NCBI GenBank assembly: GCA_937960895.1
Contig: CALCJD010000145.1
Span: forward strand, 1 to 50,992
Source: an uncultured Spartobacteria bacterium
Lineage (GTDB): Bacteria > Verrucomicrobiota > Verrucomicrobiia > Chthoniobacterales > Terrimicrobiaceae
Direction: 5' to 3'
DNA length: 50,992 nucleotides
Part shown: piece by piece, positions 2,893 through 40,611 of the stretch
Layout: every line of letters starts with the position of its first letter
Position numbering within the stretch: the first letter of the stretch is position 1
Translations under genes and position numbers: made by a program
The notes under the pieces: generated by a model
Databases searched by the model: none
Told to the model about the DNA's origin: nothing
The model's input: the letters and a program-made list of their open reading frames with translations, nothing else

Positions 2893-3138
2893 GTATTTAT
2901 CGCGTCCCTGCAGGCCGCGGTCGGGTTTTGTGGATCGCGTTACCCGGGCCTTTGGCCTGGGCAGTGTTGTTTTTGCCCCTTTGGGGCAAAGACGATTTCA
3001 CCTGCACCAAAGGCGCATCATCCCGTGGCCCAAGTCGGGGGCCCCGGTTCGAAGGCCGGAGGCCCGGGTTGGGGAACCGGCGGCCCGGGGTCGGTCGGCG
3101 GGTATCGCAAAATGGGTTCGTCCTGAAGGGACGGGGTT

Positions 3139-17812: not shown

Positions 17813-17839
17813 ATTGCTTCGCACGCGAGATCACCCCGG

Positions 17840-18508: not shown

Positions 18509-18540
18509 TCCCAATCCGCCGCCATGGTGGCTCCTGAAGA

Positions 18541-19242
18541 ATGATCCCCCCTCACTGCCGTTTTCGCACGCGATGCGCCGCAGCCTTCACCTTGGTTGAG
18601 ACCCTGGCCGTTGTTGCGGTCATTGCCGTCCTGGCGGCTCTGCTGGTGCCCACTGCGACAAAGCAAATCCGACGTGCGCAGGAGGCGGGTTGCCTGAACA
18701 ACCTGCGGCAAATCGGGGTGGCGACGGAGATGTTTCTGCAGGATCACGAGGGCTACATGCCTGACGTGAACTGGTGGGCGCAGGAGCTGCTGCCGTACGG
18801 GAACGAAACGGGCCGGGAGAAAAACATCTTCTGGTGTCCGGCGGCGACAAGGAAGGACGCCCCTTTGAATGCCAGTGGCAATCTGGGACGTTACGAGGAT
18901 GGCGCGATCATTCCCATCGCGTATGGGATCAACGGCAACTATCCGAGCAACAACGGACAGATCCTGGTGGGAAACCGCGGCACACGTGTGCCCGAACGTC
19001 GCAAGCTGACGGTGCCCGATCCACAGAAGACGGTGATTTTCCTCGATGGTGCGGGCGGTTTTGCAAACATCTTCTTCGACACCCCCGCTCGCATCTCGCG
19101 ACGCCACGCGCGGTCCGAGGATGCCAACCGCATGCAGGTGAATGCCCTTTTTGTCGACGGTCATGTTGCACCGCTCGACATGGAATACAGCACCGCGCCG
19201 CGCTCCCCCTGGCGGGCCACGTTTGACACCGTCTGGAAGTAG
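18541..19242 (+). CDS. Prepilin-type N-terminal cleavage/methylation domain protein (type IV pilin-like N-terminus; DUF1559-like C-terminus)
   Basis: N-terminal AAFTLVETLAVVAVIAVLAALLVP (class III signal / pilin-like helix). C-terminal ...NALFVDGHVAPLD, similar to the LF-DG-[SH]-V end of Planctomycetes/Verrucomicrobia DUF1559 proteins. Confidence 0.7.
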   Translation: MIPPHCRFRTRCAAAFTLVETLAVVAVIAVLAALLVPTATKQIRRAQEAGCLNNLRQIGVATEMFLQDHEGYMPDVNWWAQELLPYGNETGREKNIFWCPAATRKDAPLNASGNLGRYEDGAIIPIAYGINGNYPSNNGQILVGNRGTRVPERRKLTVPDPQKTVIFLDGAGGFANIFFDTPARISRRHARSEDANRMQVNALFVDGHVAPLDMEYSTAPRSPWRATFDTVWK

Positions 19243-19243
19243 T

Positions 19244-19260
19244 CCGGACGTCCGTTTTTT
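19244..19260 (+). terminator. 10-bp perfect palindrome CGGACGTCCG followed by TTTTTTG; weak candidate terminator or protein-binding site between the pilin-like gene and the GH gene
   Basis: Sequence agtagtCCGGACGTCCGttttttgaatcaggcATG. The stem is short (4-5 bp usable), so a factor-independent terminator is only marginal. Confidence 0.2.
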
Positions 19261-19269
19261 GAATCAGGC

Positions 19270-22089
19270 ATGAAAAAAACGATGTTCCTTTGTTGCGTCG
19301 TGCTGTCGGTTCTTCCGGCGTGCGACGCTCCCCACCGCAAGGCGGATCCGCGCGAGGTGAGGCAGATTCCGCCCGGGCCGTGGTTTCAGCCGGAGGAATA
19401 TCTCTGGGTTCTGCAAAAAGTGGACACCGGAGCCCGAAAAGGGATGTCCACGCCCTGGCGGACGACGGTGACGGACGGGCGCACCAAGGACATCGTGCTC
19501 GACTGGAAGGATCTCACGGACCGGACGGAGTGGAAACGGGCGAGCATCCAGATTTCGCGGGCGGCGGATGTCGAGCCGTTCTTCGGACGCGAATTCACCC
19601 ACGCCGGGGAGCCCGCCGTGCTGCCCCCGCTGCCCCGGGGGGGCTATTGGCTCACCGTGAAAACCTTCGGGGACGGACTGACCGGCTTTTACCGATTGTA
19701 TCTGAACGTGCTGGAGTCGCCGCTTGCCGGGAACGACTTACCGGACGCGCCGCTTGCCAGCCTGCGGGCGAGGGGCGGACAGGATGGAAACGTGGTGGTT
19801 TCGGGGTGGAATCCCTCCGTCGGGGAAGCCTCCCTGCGGGTGAAGGTCGGCACGGTGGAGGGGGATGCGGTGAGTGAAAAAAATGTGCCCCTTCCGACGG
19901 GCGGGAAGGAGGTGACGATTCCGGTGGACGAGGCACAGCCGGGAAGGACGCTGGTCGTGGGGGTCGAACTGACGAAAGACGGACGGGTGCTGGATCGGAC
20001 GGAAACCTGGCTGGCGGTGCCGGGAGATTATCCCGCCGCGCCGCAGTGGCCGACGGATGCGCCTCCGCAGAATGTCTTTGATTATCCGGCGGGCGAGACG
20101 GTTTCGAGCGCGGCCCCGTTCCAAGAACAACGGACCGGACTCGATGAACAACTGCGCACCATGGCGGAACGCGGCAGCGGGACCGTGCAGCTCTGGCTGC
20201 AGTGGGGCAAAATCGAACCGTTGGGCGGAGCGCGGGATTGGAGTAATCTGGATGCCTATGTGGCCTACCTGACCGAACGGAAGATCCCCTTCACCCTAGC
20301 CTCGATTGGCAGTGTACTCTTTGGCAACGGCCCGGAACGGGTGTGGGGCGAGTGGGCGATGAACGACCGGGGGGAATATGCACTCTGGCGCAAGCTGCCG
20401 ATGACAAGCCCCACGTCACCCACCTACCACCGGGAGGCGCCCGAATTCGTTCGGGCCGTCATCGAACGATACAAGGGAAATCCGTATCTGGCGGGTTATG
20501 TCACGCTGAACCAGGGACTCGACAGCGGAATCTTTCAGGACCAGCACGAAACGCTCATGGATTACTCGGCGTCGGCGCGGGAGTCCTTCCGGGGCTTTCT
20601 CAGGCAGCGTTACGGCACGCTCGACAAACTCAATGCCGCATGGGGTGTGGAGTGGAAACACTGGGACGATATCCTGCCGCCCCGTCCCGAGCTCGAGCGG
20701 GAAGTCAATCTGACCCCCGCCTGGAAGGACTGGACGGCCTGGAAGTTGCAGACCTACCGCGCCGTGTCGGTGGAGCTTTTTGAACCTCTCTTTGCCGAAT
20801 TGGACCCCGCCCGGCCCGTCGTGCATTACACGGCGAAGACCGGACCCTTTGAATATCTCTTTCCCGGCCTGAAGGTGCGCCAGTGGGCCACGGCGGATGG
20901 GGCGGGGGAGGACTACCGCATGGGCCGCATCAACGGCATCACGAAAAACTGGGGCCTGTGGCGCCAGACCGAGTCGCACGAGGTGCCTCCGGCCAATCTG
21001 CGCTACATGATGGACATGTGGGCGGCGGCCTTGCGCAATGGCGGCGGGTTGATCCGGTTCAACTTGGTCTTCAACTCCCAGCCCCGCCACTTCCTCACCG
21101 TCTATCCGCAAAATGAGGCCCTGAAAAAGACGATGGAATGGTGGGGCTCCACGGCCGCCCTGCGGGACAAGCTGGCGTCGTCTACGACCACGCCCCCGGA
21201 GACGGGGGTGGTCCTTTCCTGGGCGGACCAGCTTTACCGGAATCGGGTCTGGCGCTGGTACACACTGCCGGGGGACCGGGCCGATGCGATGACGCGGGAG
21301 CAGGGATTTCTTCCCGTGAAATGGTTGACGGAATGGACACCCGACGCGGCGTGGCAGGGCCTCAGGCGCGTATTGGTTCCCCAAGATGCGAGGGTGTGGG
21401 ATCCGGCCCTGCGGGAAAAGCTGGCCCGGTTTGTCCGGGAAGGCGGACATCTCATTCTCTGGGGACGCGCAGGACAATTCGCGGCCGATACGGGAACGGA
21501 TACCTTTGCGGGGCTCCGCGATTTGGGGGCACCGGAGCTTACGGTGATCCCGTTGCCCAATGCCCCGCTGCGGACGGTGCAATATGGGGGGGAACGTTTC
21601 TCCGTGGCACCGGCGGTATCCGTTGCCGGCGCTCCGGCCGGGGCGAGGATCACCGCCGATGGCGAGAATCGTCCGGTGGTGGTGGAGTGGCCCTTGGAAA
21701 AGGGCCGGGTGACCTGGTGTCTGTCGGAAACGGATGATGAATCGGAACGGTTGGTTGCCGCGGTCTTGAAGCAGGACGGGACCCCCCGCGAGGTGATCAC
21801 CACGGATGCCCGCGTCGACGGGTTCATGGTTGTTCAGGACGGGACGAGGTATGTGATTCTCAATCGCTATCTGGGTTTCGGCAAAAAGGCGGCGGATGTC
21901 CCCGCGAATACGACGGTGAAGCTGCCCGCATTGACCGGCGGCGGGGAATGGCTCGTGCGCCGTCTTGTGCCTGCGGCGGAGGAACAGAGATTCACCACCG
22001 AACAACTGGCGACAACCGGCTGGAAGGCCCAGCTTCTGCCCTCCGAGATGCAGGTCTACGAAATCGTGCCGGCCCCCGCGGGGCAATAG
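19270..22089 (+). CDS. Large lipoprotein with a GH42-like (beta-galactosidase-like TIM-barrel) glycoside hydrolase region; family assignment tentative
   Basis: Signal peptide with lipobox-like LPAC (MKKTMFLCCVVLSVLPAC). The central block QLWLQWGKIEPLGGARDWSNLDAYVAYLTERKIPFTLAS resembles the conserved W..EP.eG.ydF..LD motif of GH42. About 300-aa N-terminal extension. 939 aa. Confidence 0.65.
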   Translation: MKKTMFLCCVVLSVLPACDAPHRKADPREVRQIPPGPWFQPEEYLWVLQKVDTGARKGMSTPWRTTVTDGRTKDIVLDWKDLTDRTEWKRASIQISRAADVEPFFGREFTHAGEPAVLPPLPRGGYWLTVKTFGDGLTGFYRLYLNVLESPLAGNDLPDAPLASLRARGGQDGNVVVSGWNPSVGEASLRVKVGTVEGDAVSEKNVPLPTGGKEVTIPVDEAQPGRTLVVGVELTKDGRVLDRTETWLAVPGDYPAAPQWPTDAPPQNVFDYPAGETVSSAAPFQEQRTGLDEQLRTMAERGSGTVQLWLQWGKIEPLGGARDWSNLDAYVAYLTERKIPFTLASIGSVLFGNGPERVWGEWAMNDRGEYALWRKLPMTSPTSPTYHREAPEFVRAVIERYKGNPYLAGYVTLNQGLDSGIFQDQHETLMDYSASARESFRGFLRQRYGTLDKLNAAWGVEWKHWDDILPPRPELEREVNLTPAWKDWTAWKLQTYRAVSVELFEPLFAELDPARPVVHYTAKTGPFEYLFPGLKVRQWATADGAGEDYRMGRINGITKNWGLWRQTESHEVPPANLRYMMDMWAAALRNGGGLIRFNLVFNSQPRHFLTVYPQNEALKKTMEWWGSTAALRDKLASSTTTPPETGVVLSWADQLYRNRVWRWYTLPGDRADAMTREQGFLPVKWLTEWTPDAAWQGLRRVLVPQDARVWDPALREKLARFVREGGHLILWGRAGQFAADTGTDTFAGLRDLGAPELTVIPLPNAPLRTVQYGGERFSVAPAVSVAGAPAGARITADGENRPVVVEWPLEKGRVTWCLSETDDESERLVAAVLKQDGTPREVITTDARVDGFMVVQDGTRYVILNRYLGFGKKAADVPANTTVKLPALTGGGEWLVRRLVPAAEEQRFTTEQLATTGWKAQLLPSEMQVYEIVPAPAGQ

Positions 22090-22462: not shown

Positions 22463-22550
22463 TGGTGCCGGCGGCGGGATTCGAACCCGCACTCTGGTTT
22501 CCCAAAAACGGATTTTAAGTCCGTTGCGTCTGCCATTTCGCCACGCCGGC
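22463..22550 (-). tRNA. tRNA-Leu (anticodon TAA), type II with a long variable arm and encoded CCA
   Basis: The reverse complement of 22463..22550 is GCCGGCGTGGCGAAATGGCAGACGCAACGGACTTAAAATCCGTTTTTGGGAAACCAGAGTGCGGGTTCGAATCCCGCCGCCGGCACCA. It has a 7-bp acceptor stem (GCCGGCG/CGCCGGC), a D-arm, an anticodon stem ACGGA/TCCGT with loop CTTAAAA (anticodon TAA), a long variable arm, a T-loop GGTTCGAATCC and a 3' CCA. Confidence 0.85.
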
Positions 22551-27721: not shown

Positions 27722-28351
27722 ATGTCTCCCTTGAAACTCCTCCCGGCGGCCTCTCTTGCGATCCTCATGGCCGCGTTTTCGACCAGCTTCGCCCAGCAGC
27801 CGAACACCGAGTACAAGATTGCCAAGATCGACCCCAGTTTTGTCGAGTCCCCGAATTACACGGGACCGCGGTACGACAAGCGGGGAACGAAGCCCGGATC
27901 CTGGCTTGAGGTGGAGGTGACCTTTGAATGGCAGCCGCGTCAGAAGCAGCCGAAATACACGGAGGAACTGACCGCCAATTTCTACATCCTGCTGAACAAT
28001 CAGAGCCAGCAGTTCCCGAAGGGAGCCCTGCTGACCGGTTCGGTGACCATGATGAGCGTCCCGCAGGGACGGGACCTGCACACGGTCGTGTACATCAGCC
28101 CGCGCACCCTGGAGCGCATGTTTGACGGCAAGGTGCCGTCGAACGCCTCGCAGGCGGTGACGGACATCGGAGTGACTTTGAGCAAACAGGGGCAGGTGGT
28201 GGCCTCCACCAGCTGGAAGAGCAAGAGTGGAGAGTGGTGGCCGCTTTATCAGCAGACACCGGGATACGTCCTCAACAAGAACGAGACCCCGTTTGCTCCT
28301 CTCGCCTGGGATTATTACGAAGCCATCAAGCCGAAAGGCCCCGGCTTTTAA
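27722..28351 (+). CDS. Secreted hypothetical protein; first gene of the pili-like cluster (position corresponds to Amuc_1102 in the Akkermansia locus)
   Basis: Signal peptide (LLPAASLAILMAAFSTSFAQQ). 209 aa, lower GC than its neighbours, no known domain recognised. Its stop lies 39 bp before the PilM-like gene. Confidence 0.65.
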   Translation: MSPLKLLPAASLAILMAAFSTSFAQQPNTEYKIAKIDPSFVESPNYTGPRYDKRGTKPGSWLEVEVTFEWQPRQKQPKYTEELTANFYILLNNQSQQFPKGALLTGSVTMMSVPQGRDLHTVVYISPRTLERMFDGKVPSNASQAVTDIGVTLSKQGQVVASTSWKSKSGEWWPLYQQTPGYVLNKNETPFAPLAWDYYEAIKPKGPGF

Positions 28352-28390
28352 TACCCGGATCCACTCGGAAACTTTCCTTACAGCTAGCCC

Positions 28391-30169
28391 ATGGCCGCGC
28401 CCACACGCATTGTTTCGCTCAATCTTGGCATGCAAACCGTCACCCTGGCGGAATTCCATGCCACGCCGGATGGCGCGATTACGCTGAATGCCTGCAAGCA
28501 GGAAGAGCTGATTGTCGACCCTGCGGCGGACGTCACCCGTCCGGCCCAGATTGAGTCTGCAATCGACAACCTGCGCAAGGCATTGAAACTGCCGGCAAAA
28601 TTCCCGGTGAACTACTGCCTGCCTTCGCAGTCGGTTTTCGCCCGCTTTGTCAAACTGCCCGGAGCCACGCCGGAGGATGTCACGGAGATCATCGCCTTCG
28701 AAGCCCAGCAGAACGTGCCGTTTCCCATCGATGAGGTGGTCTGGGACTACCAGATTATGGGTGAGTCCAAGGAGAACAACTGGGACGTGGCGCTTGTCGC
28801 GATCAAGGCTGATCAGCTTGGGGAAACCAACGACGCGGTCAATCGCGGAGGTTTCCGCAGCGGCGTCATCGACGTGGCGCCCATGGCGCTCTACAACGCC
28901 TTCCGCTACAATTACAGCGAACTCACCGGATCCTCGCTCCTGATCGACATCGGAGCCCGCACGACCAACCTCGTGTTTGTGGAGGGCAAGAGGGTCTTCA
29001 GCCGCAGCATTCCGGTGGGCGGCGCCACCATCAGCGCCGCCATCGGCAAGGAATTCAAGCAGGACATCACCGTCGGCGAGAAGCTCAAGCTGGAGAAGGG
29101 ATTTGTCGGACTGGGCGGCGCCTATGCCGAACCGGACGATCCGACGGAAACCCGCATTTCAAAGCTGGTGCGCAACACCATGACCCGTCTCCATGCGGAA
29201 ATTGCGCGCTCCATCAGTTTTTACCGTCAGAACCAGGGAGGCAGCGCCCCCGTGCGCGCGTTCCTCTGCGGCGGAACTTCGGGACTGCCCTACATGCTGG
29301 AGTTTTTCAGCGAAAAACTCCAGATCCCGATCGAGCATTTCAATCCCCTGCGCAATGTCACCGTGGCCAACGAGGAGACGGCCGCCTTTGTCAGCACCAG
29401 GGCGCATGCGTTGGGCGAGGTGGTCGGCACGGCCCTGCGCGGACTCAAGAATTGCCCGATGGAGATCAATCTCCGTCCCGCCAGTGTCGTCCGGGAGCAG
29501 GATCTGGCCCGGCGCAAACCCTTTCTGGTGCTGGCCGGAATCTGTCTGGTGCTCGCCCCGGCCACCTGGTGGTTCTATTTCCATCAGGCCAAGACCCTCA
29601 CCGAGCAAAACCTGGATTCGGTCAACCAGGATGTCGCCAAACTCGAGGCGGTTGCCAAGCAGTTCGACGCCCTGAACGCCGAGGCCAAGAAACTGGTCGA
29701 GTCGGCGGCGCCCCTCCTGCTGGCCTCGGCCGAACGCGGGGTCTGGGCGCAGATCATTGACGACCTCGGTCAGCGCCTGCCGAGCCGCTACATCTGGGTG
29801 ACGGAGGTCGTTCCGCTTGTCGATGGAAAGACCCCCTATCAGGTGGGTGAATCCTCGACAACGTCGCCGGTCAGCGCCACGCCGTCCGGAGGGGCGGCCC
29901 GACCGGGTGCCACCCCGCCTCCCGCGCCCAAGATCGATGCGTTGCGCATCAGCGGCCTCTATCTGGAGCGACTGCCCAACGACACCCGTTCGCAACCCCA
30001 GCTCGTGGTGGATGATTTTGTGAACAACCTGCAGAAATCCTCGGTTTTCAAGATCGAGGAAAAGGACAAATCCCGAATCATCATCGAACGGCAGACGCCC
30101 GACGGCCAGAAATGGGCCTATAACTACACCCTCGTGCTTCCGCTTCGTAATCCCATCGCTCTGCCATGA
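28391..30169 (+). CDS. Type IV pilus assembly PilM-like actin-fold ATPase fused to a PilN-like TM/coiled-coil segment
   Basis: N-terminal 360 aa form a PilM/FtsA-like actin fold (IVSLNLGMQTVTLAEF..., LLIDIGARTTNLVFVEGK..., FLCGGTSGLPYMLEFF). They are followed by a TM helix (PFLVLAGICLVLAPATWWFYF) and a coiled-coil plus beta region, as in PilN. 592 aa. Confidence 0.8.
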   Translation: MAAPTRIVSLNLGMQTVTLAEFHATPDGAITLNACKQEELIVDPAADVTRPAQIESAIDNLRKALKLPAKFPVNYCLPSQSVFARFVKLPGATPEDVTEIIAFEAQQNVPFPIDEVVWDYQIMGESKENNWDVALVAIKADQLGETNDAVNRGGFRSGVIDVAPMALYNAFRYNYSELTGSSLLIDIGARTTNLVFVEGKRVFSRSIPVGGATISAAIGKEFKQDITVGEKLKLEKGFVGLGGAYAEPDDPTETRISKLVRNTMTRLHAEIARSISFYRQNQGGSAPVRAFLCGGTSGLPYMLEFFSEKLQIPIEHFNPLRNVTVANEETAAFVSTRAHALGEVVGTALRGLKNCPMEINLRPASVVREQDLARRKPFLVLAGICLVLAPATWWFYFHQAKTLTEQNLDSVNQDVAKLEAVAKQFDALNAEAKKLVESAAPLLLASAERGVWAQIIDDLGQRLPSRYIWVTEVVPLVDGKTPYQVGESSTTSPVSATPSGGAARPGATPPPAPKIDALRISGLYLERLPNDTRSQPQLVVDDFVNNLQKSSVFKIEEKDKSRIIIERQTPDGQKWAYNYTLVLPLRNPIALP

Positions 30170-31056
30170 ACTGGTTTCGTGAAAATCCCTTTGTCTCCGG
30201 CCTGGCGATTTTTGTCGTCGTGGCATCCGGGGCGTTGATCTTCCTGACGACCCGGACCATGTCGGAGTACTCCGAGATCTCCGATCAATACACCCAGGCC
30301 GTGCAGAAGCTCCATGGCCTGCAGAATCGGTCGCCGTTCCCGAATGCCGAGAACCTGGCCAAATCCAAGGCGCTGGAGGCCGAATACAAGGCCGAACTCA
30401 CCGCCCTGCAGGAACAGCTCGCCAAGCTGGAACCGCCGGTCAACCCGGACATCAAACCGCAACAGTTCCAGGACGACCTGCGGGCTGCGGTCAATGACGT
30501 GATGAAAAAGGCGGCCGAAAAGCAGGTCACCCTGCCGCGGGACTTTTATCTGGGCTTCAGCCAGTACGTCAACAGCCTGCCCAATGACAAGGCCGCGCCC
30601 CTGCTCGCCCGCCAGCTGACCGTCATCAAGGAGATCGTCGACAATCTCATCGACGTGGGAGTTCAGTCCATTGACGGCCTGACGCGCCGTCCTCTGCCGG
30701 AGGAACAGCCCTCGGCCGCCCAGGCCCAGCGCAAACCGGCCATCGTGGAACGCTTCCCGTTTGACATCGCCTTCACCACCGACCAGAGCAAGTTCCGGAT
30801 CGTCTTCAACGGGATCCAGAAATCAAACCGCTTTTTGATCATTCGGGCGCTGAACCTCAGCAACACCAGCCAGGACGGACCTCCGGTTGTCCAGGACAAT
30901 GCGCAGACCTCGGTCACGGCGACCGCCAGCCTGGCGGGAACGGGGGTCGAGGGTTCCAAGGAGCTGAACGTGATCCTCGGCCGGGAGTTGGTCAAGGTCT
31001 CCCTCCGCCTGGAAATGATCGCCTTCAACTTTCCGAAGCCGGAGGCCAAGAATTAA
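30166..31056 (+). CDS. Amuc_1100-like / PilO-like membrane-anchored pili-associated protein
   Basis: N-terminus MNWF...TM helix, then a coiled coil. The blocks FPFDIAFTTDQSKFRIVFNGIQKSNRFLIIRALNLSN and the C-terminal VKVSLRLEMIAFNFPKPEAKN resemble, from memory, Amuc_1100 of Akkermansia muciniphila (MSNW...TM; ...LEIAFQGDRESVLKAMNAI...; ...VQVSLNLVHFNQPK...). The ATG overlaps the stop of the PilMN gene (ATGA). Confidence 0.6.
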   Translation: MNWFRENPFVSGLAIFVVVASGALIFLTTRTMSEYSEISDQYTQAVQKLHGLQNRSPFPNAENLAKSKALEAEYKAELTALQEQLAKLEPPVNPDIKPQQFQDDLRAAVNDVMKKAAEKQVTLPRDFYLGFSQYVNSLPNDKAAPLLARQLTVIKEIVDNLIDVGVQSIDGLTRRPLPEEQPSAAQAQRKPAIVERFPFDIAFTTDQSKFRIVFNGIQKSNRFLIIRALNLSNTSQDGPPVVQDNAQTSVTATASLAGTGVEGSKELNVILGRELVKVSLRLEMIAFNFPKPEAKN

Positions 31057-31062
31057 TCTGTC

Positions 31063-31992
31063 ATGGATTGGGTGAAACAAAATTACGAACGCGCCCTGCT
31101 GGCGCTGGCAGCCGTCGCCTTGCTGGCCTGCAGCGTGCTGGTGATTCTCAAGGTGCAGGCTTTTCCCGCCCTGTTTGAAGGCAGGAACAGTTCGAAAAAG
31201 CCGGATCACGAGATCAAGCCCTACCCGGTGGAAGAGCTGAAGGTGGCCGCCGCACAGGTCGCCCGGCCGGCCCAGTTTTCGAGTTCCGAAGGGTCGTTGT
31301 TTGTTTCCCTGCCCTACGTGCTGAAGGACGGGATCATCATCAACCCGATGGAGAGCCCGGAGCCCCTGCATCCGCCGATCAAGAACACCTGGTTGATCAC
31401 CCACAATCTGCCCTGGTGGGAGAGCGACGTGAAGGATCAGGATCCCGACGAGGATGGCTTCACCAACCTTGAGGAGTTTCAAAACGGAACGAACCCGAAG
31501 GACAAAACCTCCGTGCCGCCCTACTGGAAGAAACTTCAGCTGGAGAAGTTCATCTCCATTCCGTTCCGTCTGAAGTTCAACGGCGTCTCGGATGAAGGCA
31601 AGATCTTCCAGATCAATCCCCAGGGAGGCCGGTCGCAATTCCGTGGCGTCGGCGAGATGATCGAGGGCACCCCCTACAAGATCGTCAGCTACAAGCAGAA
31701 ATTCGCCACCAAGAACGAGATGGAGGTCGATGTGTCCGAGTTGACCATCGAAAACACCGAAACCGGCCGCATGATCGTGCTGGTTTACCGGCAGGAAGCC
31801 AATGATCCGACCTCCAAAGCGCTATTCCGTTATCTCTATGATAACTCGACGTTTGAGGTGAAACTCGACGATGAATTCGGCCTGGTTCCGGTGCCGGAGC
31901 ACAAGTATAAACTCATTGACATCAACGATGAGAAGGCCGTAATACAGGACCAGGAGACGAAGGAAACCCATGAGATTCCTCGTCTTCGCTAA
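31063..31992 (+). CDS. Membrane-anchored hypothetical protein of the pili-like cluster (PilP-like position)
   Basis: N-terminal signal-anchor (ALLALAAVALLACSVLVIL). 309 aa, Lys/Glu-rich. It lies between the Amuc_1100-like gene and the secretin gene. Confidence 0.55.
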   Translation: MDWVKQNYERALLALAAVALLACSVLVILKVQAFPALFEGRNSSKKPDHEIKPYPVEELKVAAAQVARPAQFSSSEGSLFVSLPYVLKDGIIINPMESPEPLHPPIKNTWLITHNLPWWESDVKDQDPDEDGFTNLEEFQNGTNPKDKTSVPPYWKKLQLEKFISIPFRLKFNGVSDEGKIFQINPQGGRSQFRGVGEMIEGTPYKIVSYKQKFATKNEMEVDVSELTIENTETGRMIVLVYRQEANDPTSKALFRYLYDNSTFEVKLDDEFGLVPVPEHKYKLIDINDEKAVIQDQETKETHEIPRLR

Positions 31993-32113: not shown

Positions 32114-34591
32114 ATGAAGTTCCAAGTTTTCACCGTATCCGCCCTGTTGGCACTCAGCGCATCAGCTTCCCATGCGCAGCAGGCGGGAAGCCAAGCCGCG
32201 GCGGAACGGGAAATCCGTCGCCTGGAGCACAACAGCCGGCATGCGCAGGATGCGATCAGGAAGGGCAACGAGGCCCTGAAGAATCAGGACTATGAAACGG
32301 CCTATGCCTGGTTCAAAAGCGCGGTGGATGTCCTTCCGAGCGGTGGCTCCGCCACGGCTTCCCTGCGCGAGGAGGCGCTCGACGGTTTCAGTCGCGCCTG
32401 TGTGAAGCTGGCCCAGCAGCGCATTTCCGAAGGCCGCTTCGAGGATGCCTCGACCACGCTCGATGTCGTTCTCGAGGAGCGGTACAATCCCACCTACGGG
32501 CCGGCGCTCACCCTGCGCAAGAAGCTCAAGGAGCCGAACACCTTCAACAAGACGCTCACTCCGGGATTCATCGCCAATGTGGAGGAGGTCAAGCAGCTCC
32601 TCATTGAGGCCGACGGATTTTATCAGACCGGCCGGTTCGATCTCGCGTTCAAGCGGTACGAACAGGTTCTCAACGTCGACCCCTACAACATCGCCGCCCG
32701 CCGCGGCATGGAGAAGGTCAATCAGGCCCGGGCCAAATACTCCGACGTCGCCTACAGCGAAGCCCGCGGAAAAATGCTGACGGATGTCGAGGCGGCTTGG
32801 GCGCTTCCCGTCCGTCAGTTCGACATCGGAACCACCACCATCATTGAGCAGCCGCAGATCGATCAGCGCGGCACCTCGCTCATCAATCGCAAGCTCGACG
32901 AAATCATCATTCCCCGCATCGACTTCCAGGATGTGACGATTCGCGAAGCCCTCGATTTCATCAAGCAGCGGGCCGCGGCGCTGGACACGACGGAAACCGA
33001 TCCCTCCAGGAGGGGCGTGAACATCGTGCTGAACATTCCGGAGTCGGCTCCCGAGGCCTCCGCGCGCATCACTCTCGGTCTGACGGACATCCCGCTCCGC
33101 GCCGCCATCAACTACGTGGCGAACGCCGCAAACCTCAAGCTGAAGGTGGAACCCTATGCGGTGTCCGTGGTTCAGCAGTCCACTCCCACCGATGTGCTGA
33201 TCACCAAGGAATACAAGGTGCCGCCGGGATTCATCACGGCCCTTCCCAACCAGTCCGGGGCGGCTCCCGCTCCGGGGGCGGGCAACCTCGCCCCGGGTTC
33301 CCAGTCTGCGGTGGCGGCCCGTTCGGGGGCCCGCGAGTTTCTGGAGAACTCCGGTGTGACCTTTCCTCCGGGGGCGACGGCCTATTTCATCGCCAGCACC
33401 AGCAAGCTGATCGTCAAGAACACCCAGTCCAATCTCGATCTGGTCGACACTTTGGTGGAGAACTCCCTCGCCGTGCCGCCCAGCCAGGTGGAAATCGAGT
33501 CGAAGTTCCTCGAAGTCACGCAAAACAACCTCAAGGAGCTTGGGTTTGACTGGCTGCTTGGACAGTTTGCCATGCCCTTCGGATCGGGCATTTACGGTGG
33601 CGGAGGAACCCCGGGCCTGAATCAGACCATCAACTCCAACGCCTTCCCGATCTTGAATCCGAACGGCCTGCCGGTCGGCGCGACCTCGGACACCTCCGGT
33701 TCGATCACCGGGGGCATCCGATCGGGTTCGGGCAGCCGGTCCTATTCGACGGCAATCAGTGTCAACGCCATCGACGCGCTGCTCTTCGGCACCCCGGTGG
33801 GCCCTGCCCCGGCGATGCTGGCGGTGGCCGGAGTCTTCACGAACCCGCAGTTCCAGGTTGTCATCCGTGCCCTGAATCAACAGAAGGGCGTCGACTTGGT
33901 CAGCGCGCCCAAGGTGACCACCAAGAGCGGCGTGAGGGCCACGATTCAGATTGTCAGGGAATTCCGCTATCCCACGGAGTTCGACCTGCCGCAGGTCACC
34001 CAGTCCGCCGGCTCCATCTACACGCCGGCCACTCCGACCACCCCCACCGGATTCGAAACGAAGCCGGTCGGTATCACTCTCGAGGTTGAGCCCACGGTGG
34101 GTCCGGACGGATACACCATCGATCTGATCCTCTCCCCGCGGGTGGTCGAGTTCGACGGCTTCATCAACTACGGCAACCCCATCTACACGGTGGGTACCGC
34201 CTCTGGATTCGGTGTCTCCAGTCAGCTGTTGATGACCGAAAACACCATCAACCAGCCGGTCTTCTCCACCCGTGAGGTGACGACGGAAGTGACGGTTTAC
34301 GACGGTCAGACGGTCGTTCTGGGCGGACTGATGCGCGAAGACATCCAGAAGGTCGAGGACAAGGTGCCGATCCTGGGCGACATCCCGCTGGCTGGACGCC
34401 TTTTCCGCAGCACGGCCGACCAGCACATCAAACGGAATCTGATCATGTTTGTGACCGCCAGCCTGCTGGATCCCGCCGGTCAGCCGTTGATCAAGGTGGA
34501 TGAGGAAAGCGAGATCCTCCCCGTTCCCGATGCCATGCAGATCGAGAACGAAATCATTCCCGGCGATCCCCTTTCCGCCCTCCCTCAGTAA
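32114..34591 (+). CDS. Secretin (PilQ/GspD family) with an N-terminal TPR-like periplasmic region; paralog 1
   Basis: Signal peptide MKFQVFTVSALLALSASASHAQQ; ATG at 32114 verified. The track ORF start at 31970 is an upstream extension. Secretin-domain motifs: VEIESKFLEVTQNNLKELGFDWL, PILGDIPLAGRLFRS and NLIMFVTASLL. 825 aa. Confidence 0.85.
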   Translation: MKFQVFTVSALLALSASASHAQQAGSQAAAEREIRRLEHNSRHAQDAIRKGNEALKNQDYETAYAWFKSAVDVLPSGGSATASLREEALDGFSRACVKLAQQRISEGRFEDASTTLDVVLEERYNPTYGPALTLRKKLKEPNTFNKTLTPGFIANVEEVKQLLIEADGFYQTGRFDLAFKRYEQVLNVDPYNIAARRGMEKVNQARAKYSDVAYSEARGKMLTDVEAAWALPVRQFDIGTTTIIEQPQIDQRGTSLINRKLDEIIIPRIDFQDVTIREALDFIKQRAAALDTTETDPSRRGVNIVLNIPESAPEASARITLGLTDIPLRAAINYVANAANLKLKVEPYAVSVVQQSTPTDVLITKEYKVPPGFITALPNQSGAAPAPGAGNLAPGSQSAVAARSGAREFLENSGVTFPPGATAYFIASTSKLIVKNTQSNLDLVDTLVENSLAVPPSQVEIESKFLEVTQNNLKELGFDWLLGQFAMPFGSGIYGGGGTPGLNQTINSNAFPILNPNGLPVGATSDTSGSITGGIRSGSGSRSYSTAISVNAIDALLFGTPVGPAPAMLAVAGVFTNPQFQVVIRALNQQKGVDLVSAPKVTTKSGVRATIQIVREFRYPTEFDLPQVTQSAGSIYTPATPTTPTGFETKPVGITLEVEPTVGPDGYTIDLILSPRVVEFDGFINYGNPIYTVGTASGFGVSSQLLMTENTINQPVFSTREVTTEVTVYDGQTVVLGGLMREDIQKVEDKVPILGDIPLAGRLFRSTADQHIKRNLIMFVTASLLDPAGQPLIKVDEESEILPVPDAMQIENEIIPGDPLSALPQ

Positions 34592-34637
34592 GTAACCAGC
34601 AATCCGGATAATGAGATTTTTGCCCTTTAACGAGTAT

Positions 34638-37226
34638 ATGAGACAAACGGCCTTCATCGTTCCGGCGCTGGTGATAGTTTCCTCCCTGGGATCTCTCAGC
34701 GCTCAGAACATCGCCTCCATCGCCGACCGGGAAATCGTTCGCCGTCAGGAGGACTTGGTTGTCGGCGAAAAGCTGATCGCCCGTGGCGACAAAGCGATGG
34801 CCGAAAAGGAATACGAACAGGCGTATGTCAACTACCTGGATGCCTTGGATCGCATCCCCGCCGGGGGCGCCAGCAAATCTCTGCGGGCCAGCGCGGTCGA
34901 CAAGTTCAGCCGCGCCGCCATCGCGTATGCGGAACACCTCATTGCCACCGGCCGCTACAGCGACGCGGAAAAGGTCGCCAAGACGGTTCTCCTGCCGGAA
35001 TACAATCCGACCTACAAGCCGGCGGTGAAGCTTCTCTCCAACCTGGAGCAGCCCGACTATTACAACAAGACGGTCACCCCGCGCTCGGCGGCCGACACCG
35101 AGGAGGTCACCCGTCTGCTTTACGAAGCTCAAGGGTATTATGAGAGCGGCCGGTATGACCTGGCGATGAAACGTTACGAACAGGTCCTCAACATCGACCG
35201 TTACAACATCGCGGCCCGCAAGGGGATGGACCAGGTCAACCTGCAGAAGTCCAAATATTACGGCAGCGCCTACAACGAAACCCGCAGCCGCATGTTGTGG
35301 CAGGTGGACAACTCCTGGGACCGTCCTGTCCGTCGTTTTCAGGGAGGCCGTTCCACGGCGACCGGTCCGCTCAATCGCACGGGTGTGCGCAACACCGAGG
35401 CCATCATGGCCAAGCTGAACCGGATCATCATTCCCCGCATCGATCTGCAGGAGGCCACCGTTCGTGATGCGGTGGAGTTCCTCAAGCAACGCAGCCGGGA
35501 TCTCGACACCTCGGCGGAATCCCCAGGTGAACGTCGCGGCGTCAACATCGTACTCAAGCTGGACAGCGTTCCCGCCGCGGCCCCGGCCGATCCCAATGCC
35601 CCCGAGGATCCCAATGCGCCGCCTCCGCAGGTGAGCGGCAATGAGAACACCCGGATTACGCTGAGCTTGAACAATGTGCCTCTCATCGAAGCGCTGAGGT
35701 ATCTGACCGAGCTCTCCGGCCTGAAGTACAAGATCGACCCGTATGCGGTGTCCATCGTCCCGCTGTCCGAGAACACCACGGACCTGGTGACCAAGGAGTA
35801 TCGGGTTCCGCCCGGCTTCATTCCCACGGAATCGGGCGATGGGGACGCCCTGCCGACCCCGGGGGCGATCAGCGCCGAGCCCAACGCCCGTCGGATCGGG
35901 ACCAGGGTGGACGCCAAGACCTATCTGGCCCAGAGCGGCGTGCCGTTCCCGACCGGTGCGTTTGCCCAGTATGTTCCTGCGGGCAGCAAGCTGATTGTTC
36001 GGAACACCCCGGATGCGATCGATCTGGTGGATTACCTCGTGGATGCCGCCGTCGGTGTTCAGCCGACCCAGGTGGAGATCGAGTCCAAGTTTCTTGAGAT
36101 CACCCAGAACAACCTGAAGGAGCTGGGCTTCGACTGGCTGCTGGGGCCGTTCTCCATCGGCGGGGGAGTTTATGGAGCCGGTGGCACCGTGGGTTATGAC
36201 GGAACCGGGGTTTCTCCCGCAAGCTATCCGTTCGTGAGCGGAGGCGTTCCGGTGGGCGCCGCCGGCGCCGGCGGGGCCGGCTATCCGGTGACTTCCGGAC
36301 TGCGTTCGGGTGTGGGAACCAGCACCCAGTCGGCCATTTCCGCCAACAGCATCGATTCGCTGATCAGCGGCATCGTGCCCGGAACGAACTTTGCCTCGCC
36401 GTCCATCTTCGGTCTGTCCGGCATCTTCACCAATCCGCAATTCCAGGTCGTCATTCGGGCCCTGGATCAGAAAAAAGGTGTGGATCTGATGTCCGCGCCG
36501 AAAGTCACCACCAAGAGCGGTCACAAGGCGATTGTCCGTGTGGTCCGTGAGTTCCCGTATCCGGTCGAATTCAATCCGCCGGAGCCTCCTCCGCCGCAGA
36601 CCGGCATCACAACCAGCATCGGAGGTGGCCAGGTTCCGGGCACGATCATCACCACCGGTGTTGTCACCCCGACCACTCCGACCGCGTTTGAAACCCGCAA
36701 TCTCGGTGTGACCCTCGAGGTGGAGCCCGTGGTGGGACCGGATGGTTATACCATCGATCTGAATCTGTCTCCCGAAGTGGTGGAGTTTGACGGCTTCGTC
36801 AACTACGGATCGCCGATTCTTGGTGCCCGGTTCAATCTGGCGACCCTGACCATCACCCAGCCGCTCATTACCGACAACACCATCAACCAGCCGATCTTCT
36901 CGACCCGCAAGGTGACCACCAGCGTCAGCATTTGGGACGGGCAGACGGTGGCACTGGGCGGACTCATCCGTGAGGACGTTCAGAAGGTTCAGGACAAGGT
37001 GCCGATCCTCGGTGACGTGCCGCTCGCGGGCCGCCTCTTCCGCTCGAACGTCGACCAGAAGATCAAGCGCAACCTGATCATCTTCGTCACCGCCCGCCTT
37101 CTGGATGCGGAGGGACGTCCGGTGCGTCAGGAAGACGAGACGGAGGAAATGGTGGAGCCCCTGGGGCTGCCTCAGGACATTCCCGCTCCGCCCTTCGAGC
37201 TCGGAAAAGGCATTCCGCTCAAGTAA
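34638..37226 (+). CDS. Secretin (PilQ/GspD family); paralog 2, tandem duplicate of 32114..34591
   Basis: Signal peptide MRQTAFIVPALVIVSSLGSLSAQ (alternative start 34611). Near-identical motifs: VEIESKFLEITQNNLKELGFDWL, PILGDVPLAGRLFRS and NLIIFVTARLL. The N-terminal region is colinear with paralog 1 (YNPTY, RYEQVLN(V/I)D.YNIAAR(R/K)GM). It carries extra low-complexity inserts (APADPNAPEDPNAPPP; GAAGAGGAGYP). Confidence 0.85.
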   Translation: MRQTAFIVPALVIVSSLGSLSAQNIASIADREIVRRQEDLVVGEKLIARGDKAMAEKEYEQAYVNYLDALDRIPAGGASKSLRASAVDKFSRAAIAYAEHLIATGRYSDAEKVAKTVLLPEYNPTYKPAVKLLSNLEQPDYYNKTVTPRSAADTEEVTRLLYEAQGYYESGRYDLAMKRYEQVLNIDRYNIAARKGMDQVNLQKSKYYGSAYNETRSRMLWQVDNSWDRPVRRFQGGRSTATGPLNRTGVRNTEAIMAKLNRIIIPRIDLQEATVRDAVEFLKQRSRDLDTSAESPGERRGVNIVLKLDSVPAAAPADPNAPEDPNAPPPQVSGNENTRITLSLNNVPLIEALRYLTELSGLKYKIDPYAVSIVPLSENTTDLVTKEYRVPPGFIPTESGDGDALPTPGAISAEPNARRIGTRVDAKTYLAQSGVPFPTGAFAQYVPAGSKLIVRNTPDAIDLVDYLVDAAVGVQPTQVEIESKFLEITQNNLKELGFDWLLGPFSIGGGVYGAGGTVGYDGTGVSPASYPFVSGGVPVGAAGAGGAGYPVTSGLRSGVGTSTQSAISANSIDSLISGIVPGTNFASPSIFGLSGIFTNPQFQVVIRALDQKKGVDLMSAPKVTTKSGHKAIVRVVREFPYPVEFNPPEPPPPQTGITTSIGGGQVPGTIITTGVVTPTTPTAFETRNLGVTLEVEPVVGPDGYTIDLNLSPEVVEFDGFVNYGSPILGARFNLATLTITQPLITDNTINQPIFSTRKVTTSVSIWDGQTVALGGLIREDVQKVQDKVPILGDVPLAGRLFRSNVDQKIKRNLIIFVTARLLDAEGRPVRQEDETEEMVEPLGLPQDIPAPPFELGKGIPLK

Positions 37227-37299
37227 CGGCTCGCCAAGGTCCCCCGTTCGGAATGACGGACGGGGGTGCCGGGAGCGCGGGCGCAAGGAGACCGTCGAG

Positions 37300-37902
37300 A
37301 TGCCCATTCTTGGAATCACCGGCGGAATCGCCTCGGGAAAGACCACCTTCCGCAAGCTGCTTCTCGAGCGGATCGAGGCGGATTTTTTCGACAGCGACGC
37401 CTGCGCCCGGGAGTTGCTCGACGAGGACGAGTCCATTCGCGAGCAGGTTCTCGCAAAAGTGCATCCCGAGGCCTATGGCGCGGGGGGACGGCCGAATCGG
37501 ACGCTGCTGCGCGAGTTGATTTATCAGGACGCCGCCAAAAAACGCACGCTGGAGGGCATTCTTCATCCGGTGATTCGCGAGCGCTGGTCCCGTCAGGCCC
37601 GCGAAGCCGCGGCGGCCAACCGCCTTTTTGTCGTCGATATTCCCCTGCTTTTCGAAACCAAGGCCGAGTCGCTGTTCGATAGCATTGTCACCGTGGCCTG
37701 TTCCGTCGAAACGCAGCTGGACCGTCTCGGGAGAAACCGCAATCTGCCCCGCGAAATCTCGGAGAAAATCATTGCATCCCAGATGCCGATGGGGGTCAAA
37801 ATCGCCCGCTCTCACCACGTCGTCTGGAACGAAGGATCCCTGGAAGCCCTGACGACCCAAACCGATTTGCTAGCCCGCCATTTGCATGACCGATACGGTT
37901 GA
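37300..37902 (+). CDS. coaE: Dephospho-CoA kinase
   Basis: MPILGITGGIASGKTT (P-loop); ATG at 37300 verified. Track ORF 37105.. is 5'-over-extended. Confidence 0.85.
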   Translation: MPILGITGGIASGKTTFRKLLLERIEADFFDSDACARELLDEDESIREQVLAKVHPEAYGAGGRPNRTLLRELIYQDAAKKRTLEGILHPVIRERWSRQAREAAAANRLFVVDIPLLFETKAESLFDSIVTVACSVETQLDRLGRNRNLPREISEKIIASQMPMGVKIARSHHVVWNEGSLEALTTQTDLLARHLHDRYG

Positions 37903-39184
37903 AAACTCTCCGCCGCCCGCGTTGGAGCCCCTGTGCCTGAATTCGCTGCAGACTCTTGGTCTGCCGAAGCTCCTCGAACGGGCCGCCGACCTGGGCATCC
38001 GCATCCGGCCGGACGCGTCCCGGCACCATCTGGTGCTCGACCAGGCCCGCTACCAGCTCAGTCAGGGCGGGGAGGTGCACGCCACCGGATTGCTCGAAAT
38101 GTCCGGCGAAAACGGCGTCCTGCGCTGGCCGGCGTTCAATCTGCGCCCCGGTCCGGAGGATGTGCTGGTGCCGGCGGCGTTGATGCGCCCCCTGGAATTG
38201 CGGCCGGGTTTCTTTTTGCACTGCAGGTTGCGCCTGCCCCAGGACCGGGAACGCGGCCTTGTCGTGGAGTCCATCCTCGACATCGAGGGCATTCCGGTGG
38301 GGGAGTGGCGGCCGCCGGTTGAGTTCGACAAGCTCACCCCGCTCTTTCCCAATCGCCGGGTGTTTCTCGACTCCGCCCAGCATTCCTCGCTGACGGCCCG
38401 GGCGGTGGATCTGGTCGCGCCGCTCGGCATGGGGCAGCGGGGCCTGATCGTCGCGCCGCCGCGGGCCGGAAAGACGCTCATGCTCAAGGCGATTGCCAAG
38501 GCGATCCGCTCGAACCATCCCGAGATTGCGCTCATTTTGCTGCTGGTGGACGAACGTCCCGAGGAGGTCACCGACCTGCGGCGCGAACTGGATTGCGAAA
38601 TTTACAGCTCCACCTTTGACGAACCCGTCGCCCGCCACGTGCAGGTGTGCGAGGCGGTGGCGGAGCGCGCCAAGCGCCTGGTCGAGCTGCGCAAGGATGT
38701 CATCATTCTGGTCGACTCGCTGACCCGCATGGCGCGGGGCTACAACAACCTCCAGCCCGGCAAGGGGCGGACGATGAGCGGCGGCGTCGACTCCAAGGCG
38801 CTTGCCAAGCCGCGCAAGTTTTTCGGTTCGGCCCGCAATGTGGAGGAGGGGGGCAGCCTCACCATTCTTGCCACGGCGCTGGTGGAAACCCAGAGCCGCA
38901 TGGACGACCTGATTTTTGAGGAGTTCAAGGGCACGGGCAACATGGAGGTGCACCTCGACCGCTCCATTGCCGAACAGCGCATTTTTCCCGCCATTCACAT
39001 CGTCAAATCCGGCACACGCCGTGAGGAACTGCTTTATCATCCGGACGAATACGAGCGCGTGGTGCAGATTCGCAGGCAGCTGTCCGAACTTCCCGCCGCC
39101 GAGGCCATGGAGGTTCTTGCCGTCAATCTCCAGCACACCCGCTCGAATGCCGAGCTGCTCCTCACCGGGCTGAGGGGAGTCTGA
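37886..39184 (+). CDS. rho: Transcription termination factor Rho
   Basis: Walker [16 protein letters not shown], the [12 protein letters not shown] motif, and Q- and R-loop regions. 432 aa. Confidence 0.9.
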
Positions 39185-40611
39185 TGAAGGGGCGCGGTTC
39201 CGCCCTCCTGATCGTCCTTTTTCTTTTGGTCGCGCTGGCGGTTTTTTGGAATCGCGCAGCCGTTCAGGGCCGTGCGGTCAACACCAACATGGACTCGACC
39301 GATCAGAGCGCCTACATGAAGCAGGCCATCGATCAGCGGCTCACCGACTTCGCCTACGTCAATCCCCGGAACCGCATGCCCCTTTACCCGGGGCTGCTGG
39401 CGCTCTTCATGGACAAGGGGGAATTGACCGCCCTGCGGGAGACCCATCCGGAAAACCGCGAATTCTTCCGCCGCGCCTGCGCGGGATTTTTTGAGACCGG
39501 AAAAAAAATCAACACGGTCCTGGCCGTCGGGCTGCTCGTTTTTCTGGCGGTGGTGTTTTTGCGGAAGTTTCCCCCTCACCATGCCCTCAACATCTGGACG
39601 CTGGCGGCCTTCGGCGTCATCGTCTTCAAGGCGCCCTGGGTCCAGGCGGAGCTGCTTTATTATTTTCTGACCTTTTCGGCCTTCCTGGTGTGCTGGCGAT
39701 TGTTTGGCCGTCCGGATTTCCTTCTGGCGATCCTGGGCGGTGCGCTGCTGGGTCTCGGCCATCTCACCAAGGCTTCCGTGCTGCCGGGAGTGCTGGTGTT
39801 TGTGGTATTTTATCCTCTCGACGCGCTCTGGCGGGGTTTTCGGAGAACGGGGAGGGGCGACACCGCGAACCCTGTGGGAGGAGCCCCGGAATGCCCGCGG
39901 CCGTGGGGGGGAGTGCTCCGCCGGGTGGCCGTCGCGGGTCTTGTCGCCGCCGCCTATCTGGCGGTCATCGGCCCGTACATCCTGCAGAGCAAGCGGATGT
40001 TCGGCAGCTATTTTTACAATGTGAATTCCACGTTTTACATGTGGTGCGACTCGTGGAAGGAGGCGAAGGCCAGCACGGGCGGCGAGGACCGCAAGGGGTT
40101 TCCCGACCACATTCCCCGGGATCAGTTGCCGAGCCTTTCGAAGTATCTGAAAACCCACACCGCCGGGCAGATTGTCATGCGGCCCATCAAGGGAATTTCC
40201 GTGGTCTTCAATTCCATGATGCGCGCCTACGGCTACCTTGGCCCGTGCCTCGCGTATCTGGGGTTTGCCGTTGTCGTGGCCGCATGGAAATGGCGGCTTG
40301 TCCGGCGTTTGATCTCCCGGCGTCCGGTGCCGCTGCTGGCCCTTCTCGCCTACTTTTGCGGCTATTACCTGCTGTTCGCCTGGTACAGTCCCATCATCAA
40401 CGGGAACCGCTTCGTTCTCGGACTCTTTCTGCCGTTTCTCTTCTCGGTGTCCGTGGTCATCGTCCGGCTGGCTCCGCGGGTGCGTTGGGCCTGGCGCGGC
40501 CGGCGCCTTCCGCTGCTCACCGCGTTTAATGTCATGATGTCAGCCTGGATTGCCTGGGAAGTTGCGTGGATTTGCTTCGATCGGATAGCGCGGGTGTACG
40601 GGGGCGGATAA
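39184..40611 (+). CDS. Polytopic membrane protein, GT-C fold glycosyltransferase-like (ArnT/PMT family-like)
   Basis: At least 11 TM helices. An acidic loop motif follows the first TM (NMDSTDQSAYMKQA, D-x-D/E...Y). 475 aa. The stop of rho overlaps its ATG (gtCTGATGa). Confidence 0.55.
   Translation: MKGRGSALLIVLFLLVALAVFWNRAAVQGRAVNTNMDSTDQSAYMKQAIDQRLTDFAYVNPRNRMPLYPGLLALFMDKGELTALRETHPENREFFRRACAGFFETGKKINTVLAVGLLVFLAVVFLRKFPPHHALNIWTLAAFGVIVFKAPWVQAELLYYFLTFSAFLVCWRLFGRPDFLLAILGGALLGLGHLTKASVLPGVLVFVVFYPLDALWRGFRRTGRGDTANPVGGAPECPRPWGGVLRRVAVAGLVAAAYLAVIGPYILQSKRMFGSYFYNVNSTFYMWCDSWKEAKASTGGEDRKGFPDHIPRDQLPSLSKYLKTHTAGQIVMRPIKGISVVFNSMMRAYGYLGPCLAYLGFAVVVAAWKWRLVRRLISRRPVPLLALLAYFCGYYLLFAWYSPIINGNRFVLGLFLPFLFSVSVVIVRLAPRVRWAWRGRRLPLLTAFNVMMSAWIAWEVAWICFDRIARVYGGG

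Follow-up and report, generated by a model that had tools for sequence, protein, structure and literature searches.

Conserved tandem secretin paralogues of the Amuc_1098 family in Terrimicrobiaceae-type Verrucomicrobiota: a possible mixed outer-membrane ring

The Amuc_1098-1102 system of Akkermansia muciniphila has been studied for its effects on the host, and its mechanism is uncharacterised. To our knowledge, every secretin ring that has been characterised is the product of one gene. The secretin of the Akkermansia system, Amuc_1098, has been shown to reside in the outer membrane at high abundance. It joins an N-terminal TPR region and a C-terminal secretin domain in one chain (PMC4960237). 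Here we describe a relative of this system in a stretch of 50,992 nucleotides (nt) from an uncultured Spartobacteria bacterium (contig CALCJD010000145.1), whose source is described as a soil or freshwater Verrucomicrobia genome; we refer to this whole stretch as the window. It carries two adjacent secretin genes, A and B, both with the TPR plus secretin architecture of Amuc_1098 ('PilQ'), and A, B and the four genes upstream of them belong to the same NCBIfam equivalog families as the genes of the Akkermansia cluster. The difference is in the number of secretins: this locus has two diverged paralogues, where a single gene is found in Akkermansia-like loci and in most others from Verrucomicrobia. 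The family itself is known; what is new is the conservation of two paralogues side by side.

The two secretin genes and their operon

Both A and B are members of the Amuc_1098 family by score, domain architecture and synteny. Against the family model NF042912 (an equivalog with a cut-off of 750) A scores 860.7 bits over residues 10-792 and B 874.0 bits over residues 16-840, and the Pfam Secretin model PF00263 (cut-off 27.5) matches A with 123.7 bits (E 8e-36) and B with 115.5 bits (E 2e-33). The cut-offs of TIGR02515 for PilQ (284.35; A 119.3 bits, B 109.7 bits) and TIGR02517 for GspD (351.35; A 138.1 bits, B 125.5 bits) are reached by neither protein, and the scores against the MshL, HofQ and SctC models are far under their cut-offs. 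TPR matches to Pfam are found at the N-terminus of both A and B, those of B also including TPR_19 and a weak STN match, while an AMIN domain is not among the Pfam matches of either at E <= 0.1, the TPR region being found there instead. A lipobox is absent from both translated sequences.

The four genes upstream of A pass the cut-offs of the Amuc_1102, Amuc_1101, Amuc_1100 and Amuc_1099 families (Table 1), and because of this the locus can be regarded as the counterpart of the Amuc_1098-1102 cluster of Akkermansia muciniphila. The Amuc_1101-family protein has an actin-like ATPase fold followed by a C-terminal extension. A sequence-only reading of this DNA had suggested either a hetero-oligomeric channel or two differently gated channels on one assembly platform, and a single platform is supported by the presence of each of the four homologues in a single copy in the operon. 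Genes for pilin, PilB, PilC and PilT and for the type II secretion system (T2SS) were not found in the 51-kb window; a PilM-like gene is present, and none of PilN, PilO and PilP could be recognised from the sequence.

The same reading had described two full-length tandem secretin genes, and this description stands. The open reading frame (ORF) listing and the translations give no stop or frameshift in either gene, both of which lie on the plus strand and contain PF00263. The proteins align colinearly from the signal peptide almost as far as the C-terminus, with 48% identity and 65% positives over 850 columns (BLASTP, E = 0), which also answers the earlier proposal that identity be computed along the full length. 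A pseudogene or a frameshift in either copy, which had been named as an observation that would count against two intact genes, is ruled out in the window by the clean translations. All the motifs quoted in support of the pair were found in the translations, with some of them given to the wrong copy: LPEYNPTY and the motif beginning MKRYEQ belong to B, LEERYNPTY and the motif beginning FKRYEQ to A. Calling the secretin cores almost identical was too strong, as their identity ranges from 40 to 80% per 60-residue window.

The starts of the two genes need some attention. The frame of A is open already from 31970, and the public gene call for A (P0001, 873 amino acids) begins at that position, within the last part of the Amuc_1099 gene. 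From 32114 the frame encodes the signal peptide MKFQVFTVSALLALSASASHAQQ, and the orthologues of A among the database homologues are mostly 822-838 amino acids long. On these two grounds we place the start of A at 32114, giving 825 amino acids, and the deposited protein probably carries 48 residues too many. For B the start at M10 (34638) is favoured by the N-termini of the orthologues and by the signal helix predicted at residues 11-24 in the model described below.

AlphaFold2 (AF2) monomer models have a mean predicted local distance difference test (pLDDT) score of 70 for A and 68 for B and give the two proteins an identical order of secondary structure elements (domains in Table 1). The TPR-like helices span about 210 residues in both with a pLDDT of about 90, the linker between the N0/STN-like domain and the small N-domain is disordered, and the secretin core is rich in beta structure with low-confidence loops, as expected for a monomer outside its ring. 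The best Foldseek match of A in the PDB is the Vibrio cholerae competence-pilus secretin PilQ (6w6m, E 1.4e-9), followed by InvG and GspD, and its N-terminus is matched by TPR proteins. By sequence the best PDB match is the C-terminal core of GspD 5wln (E 2e-20). A solved structure was not found for the Amuc_1098 family, the PDB sequence matches spanning only the last 70-90 residues of the core.

Two inserts distinguish B from A and are conserved throughout the B clade. At the first, around B residues 316-347, more than 80% of the A sequences are gapped and most B sequences have residues, with a pLDDT below 50 in the model. The second, around B residues 655-689, contains B-specific blocks at B 665-679 and forms a low-confidence loop between the strands E640-654 and E690-708. 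Additionally, B has a conserved C-terminal EE..P.G tail. Two low-complexity inserts had been proposed for B from its sequence; APADPNAPEDPNAPPP is real and is the first of those described here, and GAAGAGGAGYPVTSG is no insert, its counterpart in the alignment being the Gly-rich loop GATSDTSGSITGG of A. The region of this loop (A 501-550) is the least conserved stretch between A and B.

The N0/STN-like and small N-domain module (A residues ~250-480) is also found as 2-5 tandem repeats in the proteins P0290, P0382 and P0338, and one of the repeat proteins is 3129 amino acids long. A complete secretin core is absent from all three, with P0382 matching only A residues 628-757. We considered them as natural two-secretin fusions and rejected this, as they are other proteins with repeated N0/N-domain modules.

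Distribution, age and selection

The prevalence of the pair was assessed in species-representative genomes, which gave 80 loci, all of them from Chthoniobacterales, Terrimicrobiaceae or 'Spartobacteria' metagenome-assembled genomes (MAGs). The A-then-B pair was found in the same order in 75 of the 80. In these pairs the A-type copies have 54-82% identity to A and 45-50% to B, and the B-type copies have 46-79% to B (49% or less only where a contig cuts the gene) and 38-52% to A. The nearest genome locus, from a Terrimicrobiaceae MAG (L018), has 82% identity for A and 79% for B. Three of the 80 loci are without B and lie on contigs that stop 27-424 nt past A; in the clade as a whole, loci without B occur only on contigs that stop within 2-424 nt past A. 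The remaining two (L079 and L080) have one secretin that is equidistant from the two paralogues, at 51/51% and 52/53% identity to A/B, and their synteny is identical: an epimerase, the 1102, 1101, 1100 and 1099 genes, the one secretin, and Rho 0.7-1.2 kb downstream.

A metagenome scan with a deliberately diverse alignment of the family gave 80 additional loci, 50 of which were too short to judge. Nine were tandem, all of the A/B type, and the other 21 had a single secretin with at least 2.8 kb on each side and no more than 49% identity to A or B; an Akkermansia-like human-gut locus (L131) is among these. Thus all of the 21 well-flanked loci outside the clade are single copy. From this distribution, the single-copy state is both ancestral and prevalent, with the pair characterising one clade. 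Within it, neither A nor B has been lost in any adequately covered genome (75 species-level genomes and 9 metagenome loci). The sequence-only reading had asked for conservation of both copies in related genomes and had named a recent strain-specific duplication as the outcome that would undo it; the former is what these counts give, and the latter is ruled out by them. The best 120 database homologues of A are 68-100% identical to A and those of B 64-100% identical to B, many of the A and B matches lie on contigs of equal length, one A/B homologue pair has adjacent locus tags, and NCBI puts the same family name on both copies in the MAG records that show a source name.

The surroundings of the secretin genes are conserved as well. 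The upstream Amuc_1102-1101-1100-1099 synteny is common to 10 related loci that were fully examined, and three further loci have no match for one upstream gene. Rho is found downstream of the secretin or secretins in 13 of the 15 related loci examined, with no match for it in L034 and L103, and the gene for CoaE is downstream in two other contigs.

A neighbour-joining tree with Kimura distances was built from 127 representatives of clusters at 50% identity. The A clade has a bootstrap of 97 and the B clade of 100, and the single-copy group of L079 and L080 neighbours both. Mean identities are 48% between A and B, 50% between A and the single-copy proteins and 48% between B and the single-copy proteins. 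Given the similarity of these three values, the duplication is of roughly the same age as the divergence from the single-copy relatives. On these sequence comparisons the duplication is an old one, and we place it in an ancestor that the Terrimicrobiaceae-type Chthoniobacterales have in common.

Purifying selection, for which the earlier reading had proposed a check, is strong on both copies. The ratio of non-synonymous to synonymous change (dN/dS), calculated by NG86 for the closest orthologue pairs at a dS of 0.3-1.5, is 0.03-0.13 for A and 0.03-0.14 for B, where dS is near saturation for many of the pairs. Non-synonymous change in B is about 1.3-1.5 times that in A, and A is the better conserved of the two in 93% of genome pairs. 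Conservation is even over the full length of both proteins, including the TPR, N0, N-domain and core. There are 190 columns that are conserved and identical in the A and B clades, among them the motifs VPILGD.PLAGRLFRS and KGVDL.SAPKVTTKSG. Gene conversion as the source of these near-identical motifs is ruled out, because every 60-codon window, the most conserved motifs included, has a dS of about 1 between A and B, and the longest exact nucleotide run common to both is 20 nt; the shared motifs are therefore kept by selection on the protein.

Changes were polarised with 31 single-copy outgroups. The number of conserved columns is 340 in A, 337 in B and 311 in the single-copy relatives, and of the 311 ancestral columns 177 remain conserved in both paralogues, 45 in A only, 44 in B only and 45 in neither. 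B is the derived copy at most of the fixed differences. Since the columns lost are symmetric (45 and 44) and the totals of 340 and 337 leave no net relaxation, each copy has exchanged part of the ancestral constraint for constraint of its own. As a test of complementary degeneration this symmetry without net relaxation is suggestive and would fit several hypotheses alike.

Tandem pairs also occur in other lineages. L084 (6001..10220), from a distant Amuc_1098-family lineage, has two copies with 51% identity between them and 37-39% to A or B, and its closest relatives L086 and L100 have one copy, which argues for an independent duplication; the second copy of L084 is cut by the contig end. L081 (8001..12399, GCA_049314455.1) has a divergent low-GC pair of 789 and 670 amino acids that are 36% identical. 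The second copy there has a signal peptide and is missing most of the TPR region at its N-terminus, as might be expected of a dependent partner subunit. In the single-copy locus L103, a fragment of about 140-150 amino acids (15954..16439), 60-62% identical to the C-terminal secretin core, lies 3.4 kb downstream of the full gene, perhaps left over from a lost copy or from a rearrangement.

A mixed ring or two channels

The reading that we prefer, with a confidence somewhat short of even, is that A and B build one mixed outer-membrane ring. The TPR-fused secretin gene of an Amuc_1102-1101-1100-1099-1098 operon of the pilMNOPQ-like kind would have been duplicated in tandem in the ancestor of the clade. 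Each copy would then have given up part of the ancestral constraint and acquired constraint of its own, B becoming the more derived with its two clade-specific loop inserts and its conserved C-terminal tail. The two proteins, being made together, would co-assemble via the conserved secretin core into one mixed ring above the single inner-membrane platform, and neither of them would now be dispensable. A more specific form, which we put forward more tentatively, is that A and B depend on each other as obligate partners in one ring, for example an alternating 12- or 14-mer. Such a ring would make them the first hetero-oligomeric secretin channel from nature, established through constraints lost and gained in complementary fashion after the tandem duplication, maybe repeatedly in the Verrucomicrobiota (L084 and L081).

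Co-assembly is proposed because secretin rings are formed by the core domain, which is where conservation between A and B is highest. Variants of one secretin are able to share one ring, as the ladders formed by full-length and truncated PulD demonstrate (PMC4604470). Bacteria have been argued to keep related secretins apart, since mixed multimers would otherwise form and would probably be non-functional, natural mixing being regarded in the field as harmful (PMC3230066). The expression context points the same way. Over the scanned positions 26500-39500 neither a promoter-like nor a terminator-like site is predicted between A and B that could divide them, and the only promoter-like site in this range is on the minus strand within B (35137-35166). 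The gap from the stop of A to the start of B has a median of 11 nt over 62 genomes, and in 8 of the 62 the genes overlap by 1 or 4 nt; a short or overlapping gap of this kind is typical of translationally coupled subunits. Taken with the adjacency of the genes, their strict co-retention and the conserved oligomerisation core, the sequence evidence leans towards co-assembly. We favour the mixed ring because two co-made secretins with 48% identity should be hard to keep separate, yet the arrangement is stable across the clade.

Several observations weigh against a mixed ring. We know of no structurally solved secretin that is not homo-oligomeric, and this prior favours homomers. Adjacency and co-retention would be equally expected for two channels on one platform. 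Only 8 columns are fixed and different between A and B (Table 1), and the roughly 118 newly conserved positions of each paralogue also fit two specialised channels. In the tree, the node that unites A and B as sisters is weak, with a bootstrap of 25. Finally, B has at least four frameshifts and A none in one long-read MAG (L001, 12600..15120), where the PilM-like gene and Rho are intact and the Amuc_1099 gene has one frameshift. These frameshifts are probably long-read assembly error and could be a real decay of B in one species; nucleotide comparison of this locus involved sequences too divergent to separate the two. The B ORF is split in L002, L005 and L008 as it is in L001, several of these being long-read MAGs, and because Rho is also frameshifted in L005 and L034 has a 100-N gap, the split ORFs look like assembly error.

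The most serious alternative, possible though somewhat doubtful on the sequence evidence, is that A and B form two separate homo-oligomeric channels on the same Amuc_1099-1102 platform, each specialised by substrate or state. Examples would be two filament types, a pilus as against protein or DNA passage, or different gating. The solved secretins among the PDB matches are all homomeric, each paralogue has conserved positions of its own, with B adding its loop inserts and C-terminal tail, and the Gly-rich loop is where the copies are least conserved. In Thermus, one type IV pilus machine can serve two pilus types (PMC13039148). Several observations speak against this alternative. Neither copy is lost in the 75 plus 9 adequately covered clade loci; differential expression would be hard with neither a promoter nor a terminator predicted between the genes and a gap that is very short or overlapping. 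Pure rings would require an unknown sorting mechanism, given the conserved core and simultaneous synthesis, and both A and B retain the N-terminal TPR and N0 modules.

It is improbable that one copy is accessory, with A as the pore and B as, for example, an assembly chaperone or pilotin-like factor, a periplasmic or outer cap ring, or a tether to the peptidoglycan or outer membrane. B is indeed the more derived copy at the fixed differences, with its dN 1.3-1.5 times faster and extra loops, and the second copy of L081 is without most of its TPR domain. However, B retains a full secretin core, the invariant residues of A and the 190 shared conserved columns, its score on the family model is higher than that of A (874 and 860.7 bits), and its dN/dS is as low as that of A. 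Plain redundancy or dosage is highly improbable and largely excluded by the pattern of divergence and retention, since such duplicates normally stay similar or vanish, and here we see 48% identity, saturated dS, no gene conversion, two deep clades with paralogue-specific conserved sites and no loss in the covered clade genomes.

Gene neighbourhood and comparison with known systems

The coordinates of the genes, the domains and the inserts are collected in Table 1. The coaE gene and rho are conserved downstream neighbours of the pair, and the true start of coaE is probably later than 37105, as its Pfam match starts at residue 68.

Table 1. Features of the secretin locus. Nucleotide positions are those of the window; residue numbers are those of A (825 residues) and B (871 residues).
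Feature	Position	Strand	Details
Amuc_1102-family pilus-like protein gene	27722..28351	+	First of cluster; NF042424, 112.9 bits, cut-off 55
Amuc_1101-family PilM-like gene	28391..30169	+	592 amino acids; NF045709, 684 bits, cut-off 650; PilM_2 E 4e-27
Amuc_1100-family pilus-like protein gene	30166..31056	+	NF038287, 249.5 bits, cut-off 180
Amuc_1099-family pilus-like system protein gene	31063..31992	+	NF042425, 233.5 bits, cut-off 50
Secretin paralogue A	32114..34591	+	825 amino acids; stop 34589-34591; translation, PF00263, NF042912
A-to-B spacer	34592..34637	+	19 nt to first ATG 34611; 46 nt to likely start 34638
Secretin paralogue B	34611..37226	+	871 amino acids, or 862 from M10 (34638)
B-specific Pro/Ala-rich low-complexity insert APADPNAPEDPNAPPP	35556..35651	+	B residues ~316-347, loop of N0-like domain
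B-specific Pro/Gly/Thr-rich insert	36573..36677	+	B residues ~655-689, between two long barrel strands
Dephospho-CoA kinase coaE	37105..37902	+	PF01121, E 3e-39; conserved downstream neighbour
Transcription termination factor Rho	37886..39184	+	Pfam Rho_RNA_bind, ATP-synt_ab; conserved downstream neighbour
Domains of A, by residue			Signal peptide 1-21; TPR 19-229; N0/STN-like 251-368; linker 377-402; small alpha/beta N-domain 405-455; secretin core 458-790; then C-terminal tail
Domains of B, by residue			TPR 34-236; N0-like 263-398; alpha/beta N-domain 435-482; secretin core 487-831
Fixed differences, A/B			L99/Y106, R103/L110, D262/N270, Q484/P513, A552/S580, Y729/W775, H771/K817, P787/A833

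The remaining genes of the window are housekeeping and carbohydrate-related. On the minus strand at 1..5286, a protein of more than 964 amino acids with DUF3686 ('ATPase involved in DNA repair') and DUF7902 is cut by the window end and is adjoined by an ORF of 715 amino acids for which Pfam gave no match; the two may form a two-gene module that has yet to be characterised. A PEP-CTERM protein at 17051..17812 is followed by ORFs of 222 and 233 amino acids without a Pfam match and then by a GH42-like glycoside hydrolase of 939 amino acids, the group occupying 17051..22089, and a LacI-family regulator lies upstream (15949..17001). An ORF of 475 amino acids (39184..40611), whose first base is also the final one of the stop codon of Rho, has a coding-like GC content at third codon positions (GC3) and no Pfam or NCBIfam match. 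The sole RNA gene found in the window is a tRNA-Leu with anticodon TAA (22463..22550, minus strand).

A search of the literature for tandem, duplicated, paralogous or heteromeric secretins, for pilQ1/pilQ2 and for secretins of Terrimicrobium found no description of the pair. The known PilQ rings are homo-oligomers from one gene, while two genes are present here. A and B would work in the manner of PilQ- or GspD-type secretins. With PilQ and its PilMNOP partners, as in Pseudomonas aeruginosa and Vibrio cholerae (6w6m), several features are shared: the core fold is the same, with 6w6m as the best Foldseek match, the secretin comes last and a PilM-like gene stands at the start of the operon, and the core of A and B follows an N0-like domain and an alpha/beta N-domain. 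A and B differ from PilQ in falling under the TIGR02515 cut-off and in having a fused TPR region of about 210 residues where no AMIN domain was found. With GspD they share the general layout of N-domains plus secretin and, in 5wln, the best PDB sequence match; they differ in falling under the TIGR02517 cut-off and in the lack of T2SS genes in the window.

Mixed multimers of the f1 and IKe pIV proteins were reportedly obtained by Kazmierczak and co-workers in 1994. These, like the PulD variants, are forced laboratory mixtures and differ from a natural, conserved two-gene arrangement. The TPR pilotins PilF, PilW and Tgl of type IV pilus secretins also link a TPR module with secretin assembly. 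They are separate lipoproteins, whereas in A and B the TPR region sits within the secretin chain itself; we infer that the two kinds of TPR region may have a function in common.

A pair kept without loss across a family-level clade, in an operon with a single platform, is a natural test case. It could be used to address whether heteromeric rings are possible, how the number and symmetry of the subunits are set, and how a homomer comes to need two paralogues. Cultured relatives such as Terrimicrobium exist. The closest described system is still that of Akkermansia, where the gut locus L131 has relatives of Amuc_1102, 1101 and 1099 before the secretin and Rho after it. The Akkermansia-like protein has only about 33-36% identity to A and B, and the Terrimicrobiaceae version of the locus offers a comparative handle on the Amuc_1098-1102 system.

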